A stretch of 64,000 nucleotides of DNA. It comes from Candidatus Tayloriibacteriota bacterium (GTDB lineage Bacteria > Patescibacteriota > Minisyncoccia > Phycocordibacterales > CAIRYW01). Shown in pieces: positions 616 to 52,046 of the stretch. The position numbers were made by a program, and so were the translations under genes. The stretch lies in the NCBI GenBank assembly GCA_028286725.1, contig JAQBQZ010000014.1, positions 5,051 to 69,050 on the forward strand. The letters are read 5' to 3'. The notes under the pieces were generated by a model, which ran no database searches, was not told the origin of the DNA, and saw only the letters and a program-made list of their open reading frames with translations. Within the stretch, counting starts at the first letter, position 1, and each line of letters starts with the position of its first letter.

Positions 616-766
616 ACAACCGAATAAGCGCCTAACCCGTTAGTTTTCTAACGGTATGGCAACAAGTCAGGACATGAATAAAGAACCCATCATAGGGGTC
701 GCATGTCCTGCCGTGTGGGGAAACCTGCACGAGTAGCTTCGGCTACTACCTTGTGGTGGGCTTTTT
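616..766 (+). ncRNA. Structured leader or small RNA candidate: three hairpins, the last capped with UUCG and followed by a T-run
   Basis: Hairpins ccgttag/ctaacgg (637-654), gtcaggacatg/catgtcctg (666-710) and cacgag-gtagc-UUCG-gctac-cuugug (728-755), then ttttt at 762-766. Sits directly upstream of the ORF starting at 770/794. Confidence 0.3.
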
Positions 767-6795: not shown

Positions 6796-6832
6796 AAAAT
6801 GCACGGCGCCTAAAGGGCGCCGTGCATTTTGA
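6796..6832. terminator. GC-rich palindromic rho-independent terminator (bidirectional)
   Basis: aaaatGCACGGCGCCtaaaGGGCGCCGTGCatttt directly after the rsmI stop. Confidence 0.6.
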
Positions 6833-9111: not shown

Positions 9112-9645
9112 ATGGCAAAAATCACTATATTTGGGCTCGCAGGGACGGGCAAAGGTACTGTTTGTAGGCTTCTCTGTGAGAAGCTTGGCTACCGATCTTT
9201 TTCGGGCGGAGACTTCGCCCGAGAGACTGCTCGCAAAATGGGTCTCACGATAAATGAGATCGATGAGCTTTCTCGATATGACAAAAGTGTTGATATTGAA
9301 AGAGATCGGGTGATCGAAGACTTTGGTAAAACCAATGACAATTTTGTCGTGGAGGCTCGACTTGGGTGGAAGTTTATTCCTGATTCATACAAGGTGAGCT
9401 TTGAGTGCGATTTTGAAGAGCGTACTCGTCGTGTAGCTCAGAGAGAGAAGAAAGATATCGTAACTGTACAAGCTGAAACTGTACAAAGGGAAAACGCGAT
9501 CTATGATAGATTTCTCAAATATTATGGAATCAAAAATGTTAATGATCCAAAACATTTCGATCTCATTATTGATACGACTCATATTACGCCAGAAGAGATT
9601 GCAGAGAAAATTATAAACGGACTCAAAGAGAATAATGTTTTTTAG
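9112..9645 (+). CDS. cmk: Cytidylate kinase, archaeal-type (Cytidylate_kin2 family)
   Basis: P-loop ITIFGLAGTGKGTV and overall similarity to archaeal CMP kinases. 177 aa. Confidence 0.6.
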   Translation: MAKITIFGLAGTGKGTVCRLLCEKLGYRSFSGGDFARETARKMGLTINEIDELSRYDKSVDIERDRVIEDFGKTNDNFVVEARLGWKFIPDSYKVSFECDFEERTRRVAQREKKDIVTVQAETVQRENAIYDRFLKYYGIKNVNDPKHFDLIIDTTHITPEEIAEKIINGLKENNVF

Positions 9646-9836
9646 AATCTAATTCAAAATTAATGAACTATACAAAACCCAAAATTTTGAAGGAAAAAAC
9701 AAAGGATGAGGAAGGAGGCCTAGCGGTGCTAAGCAGACTGACGAAACTTGGTTTTTTACCAAAATTTTGGGTTTTGGATGTTAAAGTTTTATTTTCTTGT
9801 ATTTATTATAAACGGTTAATTTTGAATTAGATTCTG
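9643..9836. mobile_element. MITE-like palindromic element, copy 1, with perfect 20-bp terminal inverted repeats
   Basis: TIR agaatctaattcaaaattaa (9644-9663) pairs with ttaattttgaattagattct (9816-9835). Nested 17-bp IR caaaacccaaaattttg/caaaattttgggttttg. Purine-rich core aaggatgaggaaggaggc. Left TIR overlaps the cmk stop codon. Confidence 0.5.
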
Positions 9837-9837
9837 T

Positions 9838-10248
9838 ATGAACTTTAAAAAATTCGCATACATATTTGGTGGATTTTATATTTTGTTAGCACTCGCTTCT
9901 GTCTACCCAAATGACATCATAGGACACAACGCATTTTTGTCGACTGACTTTCTGCATAATTTTATTCATCTACTTATTGGGTTTGTGCTTGTTGGCATTG
10001 CACTATGGGACAATGATGAACATTTCTCACTTCCTCGAGTGATTCGAACTATTGGAGGAGTGCTTATTGTACTTGCCGTATTCGGTGCATGGTTTACGGG
10101 GTTAGATATCGGCAAGATCATGGGACTCATCACGGTAAATGGGACAGCAAATATTTTGCATCTTATTACTGGAGTCTTGTGTATTGTGGTTGGAACTTCA
10201 CCGCTTCGAAATTATCGCAAAGGAGATGGTGTAATGCATTCACATTAA
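9838..10248 (+). CDS. Hypothetical integral membrane protein
   Basis: 136 aa with four hydrophobic helices. Confidence 0.4.
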   Translation: MNFKKFAYIFGGFYILLALASVYPNDIIGHNAFLSTDFLHNFIHLLIGFVLVGIALWDNDEHFSLPRVIRTIGGVLIVLAVFGAWFTGLDIGKIMGLITVNGTANILHLITGVLCIVVGTSPLRNYRKGDGVMHSH

Positions 10249-13010: not shown

Positions 13011-13049
13011 AAAAATGCACCGCGCCCGAAGGGCGCGGTGCATTTTTGA
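13011..13049. terminator. GC-rich palindromic terminator downstream of RNase J
   Basis: aaaaATGCACCGCGCCCgaaGGGCGCGGTGCATtttt. Confidence 0.6.
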
Positions 13050-24117: not shown

Positions 24118-24122
24118 GGAAT

Positions 24123-24162
24123 GGATTCATTTCTGACGGCCGTCAGAAATGAATCCATTTAT
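24123..24162. repeat. Perfect 40-bp palindrome (20+20, no loop) between murI and rnpB
   Basis: aatggattcatttctgacgg|ccgtcagaaatgaatccatt. Not followed by a T-tract. Confidence 0.5.
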
Positions 24163-24227
24163 CAGATCGGTAAGAAAACATTGGACCATATTGAATCGTT
24201 GAATTAATCCAATTTTTGTGGTATAAA

Positions 24228-24840
24228 TTGGCAGCGCTGGATAGCTACTGTATATGTAAATATATAGAGGAAAGTCCGAACACGGGCTGAGTATCACACT
24301 CTGTGTGATACGTATTTAAACATTTAAATATTTAAATTCGTATCGCGCGCAGCGTGATACTCGGGCGGGTAGTGGGTAATTCCCATCATTAGGAGGTATC
24401 CTATAGAGGTGCGAGCAGAGACGCTCAAAGCGAAATGCTGAGAGTGCCCTGGAAGAGTTCATTCATAATCTAATGTCGAGATAGAATTCCAAAATTTTGT
24501 GCGAAAACCAGGAATTTAGACGAATCATATCGGTGATATGGTAAGGAGAAATTACTGAGTTTGCAGCCAAAATTTTGGAATTCTATACGGCAAGCATTGT
24601 TTTGAATTTAAGTTTGCGTTTAGATTATGAATGAACTCTTTAGGGTAAGTTTTGTGGCAACACAAAAGTGAAACGGCAAAACCCTTACTTCCGTGCAAGA
24701 CCGTACCCGTGCATCGCACTTCGTGCGATGCACGGGGGTGTCGCTTGATTCGTTTGGTAACAAACAGAACAGATAAATTGCTATCGTTGCCGCAAGGCAG
24801 GCACAGAATTCGGCTTATAGGCGCTATACAAAACACTTCA
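24228..24840 (+). ncRNA. rnpB: RNase P RNA (bacterial type A core) with large insertions
   Basis: P4 strands GAGGAAAGTCCGAAC (about 24266-24280) and ACAGAATTCGGCTTATAG (about 24803-24820). Ends are approximate; about 610 nt versus the usual 350-400. Confidence 0.8.
24482..24585. mobile_element. Short palindromic MITE-like element (copy 3, deletion derivative) apparently inserted inside rnpB
   Basis: 17/18-bp IR tagaattccaaaattttg … caaaattttggaattcta. Shares the tagaat terminus, the ccaaaattttg inner-repeat motif and a purine-rich ggtaaggagaaa core with the 9643 and 39375 elements. Confidence 0.35.
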
Positions 24841-24858
24841 GGCAACTGAGGTGTTTTT

Positions 24859-24905
24859 TTAATCCCGCACTCAATTTTCCAAAGAAAAAATGAGTGCGGG
24901 ATTTG
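24859..24905. terminator. Hairpin plus T-tract downstream of rnpB
   Basis: aatcccgcactca …17-nt loop… tgagtgcgggatt, then ttgtttttg. Confidence 0.5.
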
Positions 24906-24938
24906 TTTTTGTTGTGATATAATTAGTTCAAATTTAAT

Positions 24939-32485: not shown

Positions 32486-32527
32486 GTGATATAATAACCA
32501 CCCTTTTACTAATTAATTTAAATACTT

Positions 32528-32816: not shown

Positions 32817-32890
32817 GCCCTTGTAGTTCAATGGATAGAACAGTCCCGTCCTAAGGGATAGATGCACGTTCGATTCGTACCAGGGGCACA
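32817..32890 (+). tRNA. tRNA-Arg (anticodon CCT)
   Basis: Hand-folded cloverleaf: acceptor GCCCTTG/CAGGGGC, D-arm GTTC-AATGGATA-GAAC, anticodon stem GTCCC/GGGAT with loop gTCCTaa, T-loop TTCGATT (one C-A mismatch in the T-stem). CCA not encoded. Confidence 0.7.
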
Positions 32891-38592: not shown

Positions 38593-39393
38593 ATGGCAAA
38601 CAAAAAAGTTAAAGTATTGGTGTTTTCGGGATATGGGCTCAACTGCGAAGAAGAGACCAAATATGCTTTTGAATTGGCGGGAGGTGATGCCGATATTGTG
38701 CATATCAATGACCTCATCGCAGGTATAAAGAAGATCAAAAATTATGACATCCTTGCTTTCCCCGGAGGGTTTTCTTTTGGTGATGATACAGGAAGTGGGA
38801 AGGCGTACGCAAACAAGGTTCGAAATCACTTATGGAAAGATATCGAAGAATTCATTGCCAAAGACAAGCTTATTATTGGAATTTGTAATGGATTTCAGAT
38901 TCTTACAAATCTAGGTATTCTTCCAGGAGCTTTGATGTGGAATGATAGCGCTCGATATATCGACCGATGGGTTGATATCAAGATAGAAGGCAAGAGTCCG
39001 TGGCTTACAGGTATCGACACGATCTCACTCCCGATCGCACACGGCGAAGGAAAATTCTATACAGATACTGAGACATTGAAGAAAATCAAAAATGAGAATG
39101 CGATTGTTGCTCGATATGTCAAAGGCGAGACTTGTGAAATGACAGGACTATCCTCGAATCCTAATGGAGCTCTTGAAGATATTGCTGGCGTACTAGGCAA
39201 TAATGGAAATATCATCGGTATGATGCCACATCCAGAAAGAGGATTGTTTGTATCTCAATTACCAAACTTTCCATATCTAAAAGAAAAAAGTAGAAGAGAC
39301 GGAAAGAAGCTCCCTAAATATGGTCCTGGTTTTCAGATATTTAAAAACGCAGTGGAATATTGTGCTAGAACCCGTCTCAAAATTAACCGTTAA
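38593..39393 (+). CDS. purQ: Phosphoribosylformylglycinamidine synthase glutaminase subunit
   Basis: KVLVFSGYGLNCEEETKYAFELAG…GICNGFQIL…MMPHPER class-I glutamine amidotransferase triad. Confidence 0.85.
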   Translation: MANKKVKVLVFSGYGLNCEEETKYAFELAGGDADIVHINDLIAGIKKIKNYDILAFPGGFSFGDDTGSGKAYANKVRNHLWKDIEEFIAKDKLIIGICNGFQILTNLGILPGALMWNDSARYIDRWVDIKIEGKSPWLTGIDTISLPIAHGEGKFYTDTETLKKIKNENAIVARYVKGETCEMTGLSSNPNGALEDIAGVLGNNGNIIGMMPHPERGLFVSQLPNFPYLKEKSRRDGKKLPKYGPGFQIFKNAVEYCARTRLKINR

Positions 39394-39552
39394 TTAAATT
39401 CAGATGCAACTTGAATATTCAAAAGCTAAAATTTCGGTAAAAAATAAAGTTTCGTCAGTCAACATAACGCAGTTATGCCTCCTTCCTCATCCTTCATTTT
39501 TTTCTCGAAATTTTAGCTTTTCTATTATTCATTAATTTTGAGATGGATTCTA
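39375..39552. mobile_element. MITE-like palindromic element, copy 2 (inverted relative to copy 1, diverged)
   Basis: Reverse complement aligns to the 9643-9836 element: tagaatc…caaaattaatgaa…aaggatgaggaaggaggc…gactgacgaaact…ttttttacc…aacggttaatttt. Its own inner 16-bp IR aaaagctaaaatttcg/cgaaattttagctttt shows compensatory changes. One end overlaps the purQ stop. Confidence 0.45.
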
Positions 39553-39563
39553 AAAAATAATTT

Positions 39564-39995
39564 ATGGATTCAGTAAATAATAGACCAACAGTTGGAATGG
39601 GTGTGGTTATTTTTAAAGGAAATAAGATACTTTTGGGTAAAAGAAAAAGCTCAATTGCTGGAGGATTGTATGCAAGTCCCGGTGGCCATGTCGAGTACAT
39701 GGAAACATTTGAGGAGTGCGCTATACGAGAAACTCGTGAGGAGTGTGGTATTGAAATTCAAAATGTTCGATTTCAAAGATTGGCAAATGTAATGGCTTTC
39801 AAGCCGAAACATTTTGTTGATATTTCTCTTATTGCAGATTGGAAATCTGGAGAACCTCAAAATTTAGAACCAGATAAAAATGAAGGATGGGATTGGTATG
39901 ATTTAGATAATTTACCCACAAACCTTATGGCGACTACGAAACTCACTCTTGAAAGTTGTAAAACTGGCCAGATGTATTTTCCTTTAATTGATTAA
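39564..39995 (+). CDS. NUDIX hydrolase
   Basis: Nudix box GGHVEYMETFEECAIRETREECGIEI. Confidence 0.7.
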   Translation: MDSVNNRPTVGMGVVIFKGNKILLGKRKSSIAGGLYASPGGHVEYMETFEECAIRETREECGIEIQNVRFQRLANVMAFKPKHFVDISLIADWKSGEPQNLEPDKNEGWDWYDLDNLPTNLMATTKLTLESCKTGQMYFPLID

Positions 39996-50090: not shown

Positions 50091-50114
50091 ATCAAAATTA
50101 TTTGATTGCTCTCT

Positions 50115-50169
50115 CGGCACAAAATACAAAAAACCACACAGAATCTGTGTGGTTTTTTGTATTTTGTGC
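50115..50169. terminator. Perfect 26-bp-arm palindrome directly downstream of tRNA-Phe
   Basis: ggcacaaaatacaaaaaaccacacag-aat-ctgtgtggttttttgtattttgtgcc. The inner ccacacag/ctgtgtgg stem plus tttttt acts as a terminator on either strand. The symmetry extends into the tRNA 3' end (gctctctcggca versus tgccgagagcc). Confidence 0.5.
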
Positions 50170-50239
50170 CGAGAGCCAGATTCGAACTGGCGACCCCTTC
50201 CTCTTCAGGGAAATGCTCTACCAACTGAGCTATCTCGGC
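50167..50239 (-). tRNA. tRNA-Phe (anticodon GAA)
   Basis: Minus-strand cloverleaf GCCGAGATAGCTCAGTTGGTAGAGCATTTCCCTGAAGAGGAAGGGGTCGCCAGTTCGAATCTGGCTCTCGGCA. All four stems pair and the T-loop is TTCGAAT. Confidence 0.85.
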
Positions 50240-52011: not shown

Positions 52012-52046
52012 AAAATGCACGGCACCCCTCGGGTGCCGTGCATTTC
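52012..52046. terminator. GC-rich palindromic terminator downstream of valS
   Basis: aaaATGCACGGCACCCctcGGGTGCCGTGCATtt. Confidence 0.55.

Follow-up and report, generated by a model that had tools for sequence, protein, structure and literature searches.

What lies between purQ and a NUDIX gene in a contig of a Candidatus Tayloriibacteriota bacterium, and why it resembles, in inverted and diverged form, the sequence downstream of cmk, was investigated in a window of 64,000 nucleotides, the whole stretch of DNA analysed here. The explanation favoured, and held with about even confidence, is that a non-autonomous mobile hairpin of Patescibacteria, MITE- or REPIN-like, was recently inserted beside purQ (copy B), and that its fold is selected, its presence in operons tolerated and its tip recognised.

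Copy B and its insertion into purQ

The reverse complement of 39365-39565 could be aligned end to end with 9630-9850, the region of the first element (copy A), and all blocks for which an earlier note on this DNA had claimed similarity were recovered. The mean column identity of both copies in this alignment is 85%; both are full-length (~80% identical) and were linked in a repeat search by inverted matches of 131 nt and 61 nt (I1, I2). The bounds of copy B, previously given as 39375-39552, are corrected in Table 1. On the minus strand, it reads 5'-AGAATCC...GGGTTCT-3' and has a terminal inverted repeat (I6) of 39 nt (77%) and an inner one (I17) of 24 nt (92% complementary). The inner repeat differs from that of copy A, and its arms have indeed changed jointly (aaaagctaaaatttcg / cgaaattttagctttt in copy B versus caaaacccaaaattttg / caaaattttgggttttg in copy A).

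The element had also been described as filling the gap between purQ and the NUDIX gene exactly, which does not apply, since purQ (38593-39393) enters copy B with its last 27 nt. The last nine codons and the stop of purQ are contributed by copy B, by which the KKK* ending of the closest relative's purQ is replaced with ARTRLKINR* in the window. The encoded PurQ is 266 aa long compared to 255-258 aa in most homologues. At the orthologous locus L056, where PurQ is 91% identical and the same NUDIX neighbour is present, the site is empty. The alignment with L056 matches the window to 39363 and resumes at 39552 with 3 nt in between, and window 39364-39551 has no counterpart at the purQ-NUDIX junction of L056. 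Removal of AGAACC...GGATTCT from the window leaves gcTAaaaaataattt (15 nt), the same length as the L056 spacer aagaaaaagtaatct.

Table 1. Positions of the hairpin element copies, their parts and the corresponding sites in the window.
Feature	Position	Strand	Remarks
Copy A	9644..9835	+	192 nt; alignment, fold, covariance model (CM); site empty in L071-L074
Copy C, diverged	~24453..24640	+	CM match 97 bits, E 8e-16; inverted repeats I4, I11
Empty site in window, full copy here in L034	32483..32495	+	between stop of 122-aa gene and extended -10 box
Copy B	39367..39551	-	185 nt; alignment to copy A, CM match 195 bits, orthologous junction empty
New purQ C-terminus and stop (ARTRLKINR*)	39364..39393	+	element-derived except first two bases
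Inner inverted-repeat arm	39421..39444	.	partner 39498-39521; helices 3-4
Tip module, 3' strand: GACTGACGAAACTT	39447..39460	-	same letters in copies A and B
Small apical hairpin ATAAC-TGC-GTTAT with closing and spacer bases	39461..39476	-	
Tip module, 5' strand: AAGGATGAGGAAGGAGGC	39477..39494	-	same letters in copies A and B
Inner inverted repeat, partner arm	39498..39521	.	inverted repeat I17

Copies in the window and in other genomes

Copy A separates cmk from the following gene, the ATG of which is at 9838. The cmk stop TAG (9643-9645) overlaps the first two bases (AG) of the element, which places the upstream stop at the 5' foot of the hairpin, and the downstream ATG follows 2 nt beyond the 3' foot. 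The 18-mer AAGGATGAGGAAGGAGGC is found in the window only at 9702-9719 (+) and 39477-39494 (-), with 0.01 matches expected from shuffles. The 14-mer GACTGACGAAACTT is also shared by copies A and B, and its one extra match in the window (two mismatches) is within chance. Copy B had been counted as the second copy; it is real, but the window holds three, the third (copy C) having been detected with the covariance model. In copy C the stems and the unpaired insert of the 3' arm are retained, and the tip module is decayed or altered. This copy is contained in an unusually long gene-free stretch of 820 bp (24118-24938), the remainder of which gave no match in an Rfam search.

Approximately 20 distinct full-length copies, all in Patescibacteria MAGs and metagenomes, were retrieved with a two-block pattern drawn from the tip. 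Their labels are Paceibacterota, Taylorbacteria and Saccharibacteria MAGs, two other MAGs and metagenome contigs. These relatives are 70-82% identical and score 141-212 bits against the covariance model; the element length ranges from 170 to 193 nt in the 20 aligned copies. The copy number is low, with 2-4 per genome or MAG seen (four in one MAG, three in the window). The concern that the alignment might be no better than that of shuffled AT-rich sequence, or that further copies might be lacking, was dispelled by the 18-mer, the fold controls given below and the ~20 relatives. The spacing of the two core blocks is either 16 or 17 nt, and because it varies by 1 nt among copies, no reading frame is kept; a coding function (mini-ORF MRKEA* or a frame through GACTGACGAA) was rejected for this reason.

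Another palindrome, at L071 13631-13757, was not accepted as a family member (CM 43 bits), since it is a different, longer AT-rich palindrome with a terminator at its centre that resembles family D1. The latter is a G+C-rich palindrome, AAAATGCACGGCGCC...GGCGCCGTGCATTTT, present in three copies in the window (6796-6829, 13012-13045 and 52012-52045), and looks like a bidirectional terminator.

Mobility and insertion junctions

At the level of sequence comparison, mobility of the hairpin element is proved by three orthologous filled/empty pairs, namely copy B versus L056, copy A versus L071-L074 and the L034 copy versus the window. Both window copies occupy junctions at which the genes of close relatives are just 1-3 nt apart, for copy A in four relatives (L071-L074; Cmk 87-90% identical). 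Without copy A, the window reads gtttttGTATGA, with overlapping stop and start (ATGA). L034 (~78% DNA identity) carries a copy between genes which are 42 nt apart in the window. This copy abuts an extended -10 box (TGATATAAT, window 32487-32495) that is conserved in L034 and located directly upstream of a glutaredoxin-like gene.

The inserted unit at the three junctions is AGAAYC...GRTTCT. No convincing target-site duplication was found at these three resolved junctions, a provisional result in view of n=3 and ambiguities of 1 nt. A model with duplication of TA was discarded, as it would leave cmk without a stop and misfits L034. Many or most copies are bordered by T...A. In two copies, A15/U212 at the end of the stem is exchanged for G/C by covariation, so that this pair is part of the hairpin and not a target-site duplication. 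The earlier designation as MITE-like holds with respect to small size, lack of coding capacity, terminal inverted repeats, multiple copies and insertion polymorphism, but not with respect to the target-site duplication; by its junctions, the element is provisionally not a textbook MITE. When the retrieved loci were searched for an autonomous partner, almost all matches were either complete or truncated by a contig end, and no mobilising enzyme was found among the neighbouring genes, which were screened against Pfam at a few loci.

The gene order in L034 also differs from that of the window. Homologues of window 48.7-53.8 kb directly adjoin those of window 32.9-29.6 kb, and the 15.7-kb segment with the pur genes and copy B (window ~32.9-48.7 kb) is elsewhere or absent in L034. 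One breakpoint corresponds to the tRNA at 32817-32888.

Genomic context and orientation

Copies are found within operons in both orientations. Among the copies with informative genes on either side, about eight run in the direction of these genes and three, including copy B, are antisense to them. Besides copy B, at least the copies in L034 and L053 are antisense to the flanking genes. Copies A and C, on the plus strand, and copy B, on the minus strand, all lie within one domain of positive GC skew in the window, which argues against a strict replication-strand rule (n = 3). The flanking genes are functionally unrelated, and no conserved gene neighbour was found. NUDIX genes are located beside two members of the family; an association was rejected, since the comparison with L056 identifies the window case as a recent accident.

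A scan of both copy regions gave no promoter-like or terminator-like site inside the element, and a G+C-rich stem followed by a U run, as in an intrinsic terminator, was not observed. The idea that the copies always sit at gene 3' ends as terminators is not supported, given this result and the occurrence of both orientations inside operons.

Covariation and strand preference of the hairpin

The predicted fold is a single long hairpin for copy A (-59.5 kcal/mol, z -7.2) as well as for copy B (-56.5 kcal/mol, z -7.9); none of 200 shuffles folded as well. The RNAalifold consensus of the 20 distinct copies is a single hairpin of 61 pairs, in which pairing spans from the very ends through to the tip. 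In this consensus, 95.5% of cells are paired and double (compensatory) changes are present in 38 of the 61 pairs. Helix 1 comprises 20 pairs (96% paired), and double changes are found in four of the six pairs of helix 6, the apical hairpin, which differs in sequence from copy to copy with its pairing retained. An insert of ~35 nt in the 3' arm is unpaired and has no partner in the 5' arm. Column shuffles gave 81.9% paired cells and 21.3 double-change pairs, and the observed values were attained in none of 500. When the 3' partners were slid by 1-3 columns, 32-52% of cells were paired, with 8-16 double-change pairs. The multi-copy covariation analysis, which had been proposed in the earlier note as a check, thus exceeds all shuffles and the slid-partner controls, and the suggestion made there of selection on a hairpin in which pairing is preserved despite divergence is borne out by the double changes. 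According to these alignments, the single-stranded fold of one strand appears to be kept by selection while the arm sequences drift.

The strand carrying GGAUGAGG folds more stably than its complement in all 20 copies, on average by 12.8 kcal/mol. The same preference for the forward strand was seen in 14 of 15 evaluable relatives from other phyla (see below). The consensus structure contains 38 G·U compared to 18 A·C, and L060, one of the relatives from other phyla, has six G·U on the folding strand and none on the opposite one. Such a strand-specific fold is more in line with a single-stranded form, either RNA or ssDNA, than with a feature of double-stranded DNA only. The sequence does not discriminate between RNA and ssDNA, since G·T pairs also occur in DNA; RNA is considered somewhat more probable as the folded form.

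The tip module and its occurrence in other phyla

The tip of the hairpin consists of GAGGAAGGAGGC, a small covarying hairpin and GACUGACGA. Copies A and B do not differ in it, although their stems diverge by 20-25%; the best-conserved part between these two independently found copies is the tip and not the termini. Among the CPR copies retrieved, GAGGAAGGAGG and CTGACGAAA are invariant in part because these bases formed the search pattern. Independent evidence is provided by the identity of copies A and B, by the bases flanking the pattern and by Streptomyces variants found with BLAST. In copy C, which was found with the covariance model instead of the pattern, the tip has decayed.

The same pattern was detected at six loci outside Patescibacteria. 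Four of them (L010, L011, L020 and L026) belong to Desulfobacterota-type MAGs or one further MAG with the same scaffold, and two (L004, L029) to Lachnospiraceae. At these loci, the tip caps different long hairpins beside unrelated housekeeping genes. A BLAST search with the Lachnospiraceae element led to Streptomyces megaplasmids, where a repeat bearing the tip occupies 64 places across 29 plasmid records, with 9-11 on each S. atratus plasmid; among the matches listed, all but one are outside annotated coding genes. The termini differ between the phyla with the tip being retained, and many termini of these relatives read TAG...CTA, those in Streptomyces among them. Across 26 sequences, three GA dinucleotides per strand are almost invariant, and the NN/NN between them is either AG/CU or GG/CC in all but two cases. 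Many different sequences are found in the apical stem of the tip. The tip core may therefore be read as a non-canonical purine-rich helix containing three G·A/A·G steps in tandem; this reading is beyond a covariation test because the positions are invariant.

No Rfam 15 family was matched at the gathering threshold by the window copies or by the Desulfobacterota-type, Lachnospiraceae and Streptomyces relatives, and at E<=10 only noise was obtained (miRNA hairpins and C/D snoRNAs). Several known motifs were compared individually. The sequence CUGACGA of the hammerhead ribozyme is present, but no stem II follows, the A15.1-U16.1/H17 context is missing and there is no Rfam match at E<=10. By sequence inspection, a kink-turn was dismissed for the CPR copies, where GAU precedes GA but two additional A are located opposite, and for the Lachnospiraceae and Streptomyces copies, where the 3-nt bulge lies 3' of GA. 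The defining features of a C/D box fail, and resemblance to ZTP, SRP and 6S RNA was rejected given the lack of a CM match and the unconserved gene context. A Shine-Dalgarno decoy, suggested by GGAGG-like runs in nearly all tips, is not favoured, as the tip lies ~85 bp from start codons and the sequence is GAGGACUGAGGC in one of the Streptomyces variants.

Searches of phages gave no match, and the single 26-nt match in a plasmid search (Arsenophonus) was regarded as chance. Two pattern matches in viral contigs were discarded, since they have neither the pattern spacing of the family (39-41 nt) nor a match to the element profile. On a 245.2-kb plasmid of Streptomyces sp. NBC_00984 (L069/L070), the apical hairpin of one copy is replaced by a longer insert of ~50 nt. 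Transposase genes of the IS5/IS1182-like and ISAs1 types adjoin this copy, and its end is overlapped by the stop codon of an ABC permease gene located upstream, which is also the situation in the window. The IS5/IS1182-like transposase of L069 was rejected as autonomous partner because its ends are unrelated.

With its conserved structured tip and varying ends, the element is unlike classic transposon biology, and the conservation pattern points to an unrecognised recognition module acting in RNA or ssDNA. As a tentative extension, which we consider rather less probable than the explanation given for copy B, the tip 5'-GAGGANNG(A/C)G(G/U)C, 4-5 bp hairpin, (G/A)ANNGACGA-3' might be an undescribed structured nucleic-acid module, common to mobile repeats with long hairpins from four or more phyla (Patescibacteria, Actinomycetota, Bacillota and Desulfobacterota-type), and the recognition or catalytic centre of a mobilisation or processing system that inserts free of duplication. 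If this is true, these repeats would form a new class of mobile structured elements and are not ordinary MITEs.

Proposed mechanism and alternative explanations

In the explanation favoured here, the unit AGAAYC...GRTTCT would insert bluntly and without detectable duplication into tiny spacers or gene 3' ends in operons, in either orientation. As a consequence of its position inside operons, the element would be carried on the operon transcript, in which one strand could form a near-perfect hairpin of ~85 bp. This fold may join both insertion flanks and, by bringing them together, might account for the toleration of the insertion inside an operon. The tip is probably a recognition module for a trans-acting factor, either an enzyme that mobilises the element or a protein that binds or processes RNA; this role would explain why the tip is conserved better than the termini. 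Speaking against this explanation, copy B and at least two other antisense copies (L034 and L053) would yield the weaker complementary fold on operon read-through.

The main rival, to which about half as much credence is given, is a hairpin that transposes as ssDNA in the manner of REPINs or IS200/IS605, with a HUH (Y1) enzyme supplied from elsewhere that recognises the folded top strand and perhaps the tip. Such an intermediate fits the three junctions without target-site duplication, the strand-specific fold tolerating G·T, the larger number of co-directional copies (~8 versus 3 antisense) and the covariation known from REPIN arms. It is less easily reconciled with copies on both strands in one GC-skew domain (n = 3), and neither a GTAG head of the REP type, nor small separate end hairpins, nor a RAYT or TnpA gene among the few Pfam-screened loci was found.

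A relic of a purely DNA-level transposon, in which the arms stay complementary through shared transposase binding or through mismatch repair of a hairpin or cruciform and no fold is selected, appears unlikely. In its favour, classic traits of MITEs are seen in the terminal inverted repeats, the presence of several copies and the insertion polymorphism, and the T...A flanks as well as the TAG...CTA ends in Streptomyces resemble those of TA/TNA-targeting DDE transposons. However, pairing is kept over the entire 85-bp arm instead of the ends alone, and the G·U excess and one-strand folding (20/20 CPR copies, 14/15 relatives) are unexpected for double-stranded DNA. Moreover, the termini vary across phyla while the tip stays, the three resolved junctions are without duplication and the covariation of A15/U212 places the end pair in the hairpin.

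Still less probable is a cis-acting RNA element of the host (terminator, mRNA stabiliser or processing site) that is kept for the benefit of the operon. The copies coincide exactly with gene junctions and are expected to be co-transcribed, and dsRNA stems of such length could plausibly be cut by RNase III, as reported for Correia elements (PMC10969869). Against this, both orientations occur, the sequence is not terminator-like, the neighbours are unrelated in function and the element is absent from the same junctions in close relatives (1-3 nt spacers), where it is therefore dispensable. Chance likeness of AT-rich intergenic DNA (the window has 34-42% GC) can be dismissed, with the 18-mer found twice versus 0.01 times expected, fold z-scores of -7.2 and -7.9 and relatives scoring 141-212 bits.

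Relation to known repeat families and significance

The element resembles the Correia/NEMIS elements of Neisseria in its size class (100-200 bp), in having terminal inverted repeats and T/A end bases, in lying between genes at their boundaries, and in its presumed co-transcription with the neighbours as a long foldback RNA. For Correia elements, RNase III cleavage and an internal protein-binding site for IHF were reported (PMC10969869). There is no sequence similarity between both families, and Correia elements duplicate TA, in contrast to the three junctions described here. Furthermore, the whole arm pairs and covaries in the element described here, its tip, rather than its ends, is conserved across phyla and the copy number is low. 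ERIC sequences of enterobacteria are imperfect palindromes of ~127 bp, transcribed with the flanking genes, which influence the fate of the mRNA via RNases (PMC10969869). They differ in sequence and host range and are without a cross-phylum core.

A palindromic repeat in a reduced genome with a translated insertion in a coding sequence is reminiscent of the Rickettsia palindromic elements (RPE). RPEs are usually in-frame within genes; no sequence relation to the element is known, and they are not known to have a conserved tip motif. REPINs are non-autonomous, intergenic hairpin repeats without target-site duplication and with compensatory evolution of the arms, features reportedly described by Bertels and Rainey in 2011. 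They are shorter (~100 nt) and have conserved arm ends (REP, GTAG head) and a variable tip, the opposite of the pattern observed here. REP heads, a variable tip and, among the neighbouring genes at the few Pfam-screened loci, a RAYT gene were not found in the present family, where the termini vary and the tip is kept across phyla.

A search of the literature by taxon, motif and literal sequence returned no description of the hairpin family, and Patescibacteria are not among the taxa listed with such repeats in a review of prokaryotic MITEs (PMC10969869). The family thus adds a new host group for MITE-like repeats. The genomes of Patescibacteria are thought to be streamlined; here, they harbor a recently active hairpin element that rewrites gene ends, as in purQ, and comes between genes that are otherwise tightly coupled. 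The system is accessible to experiments, given its roughly 20 natural covariation variants, the three filled/empty pairs and Streptomyces as a culturable host genus with multiple copies.

Two further structured sequences are present in the window. A perfect inverted repeat of 32 nt with a 1-nt gap (I3) is located at 50111-50175, and its right arm extends into a tRNA gene (50167-50239, minus strand) at the 3' end of the latter. At 629-747 (+), a LOOT RNA (RF03000) was identified with 81.7 bits (gathering score 46.4), a multi-hairpin RNA whose sequence is unrelated to the hairpin element.
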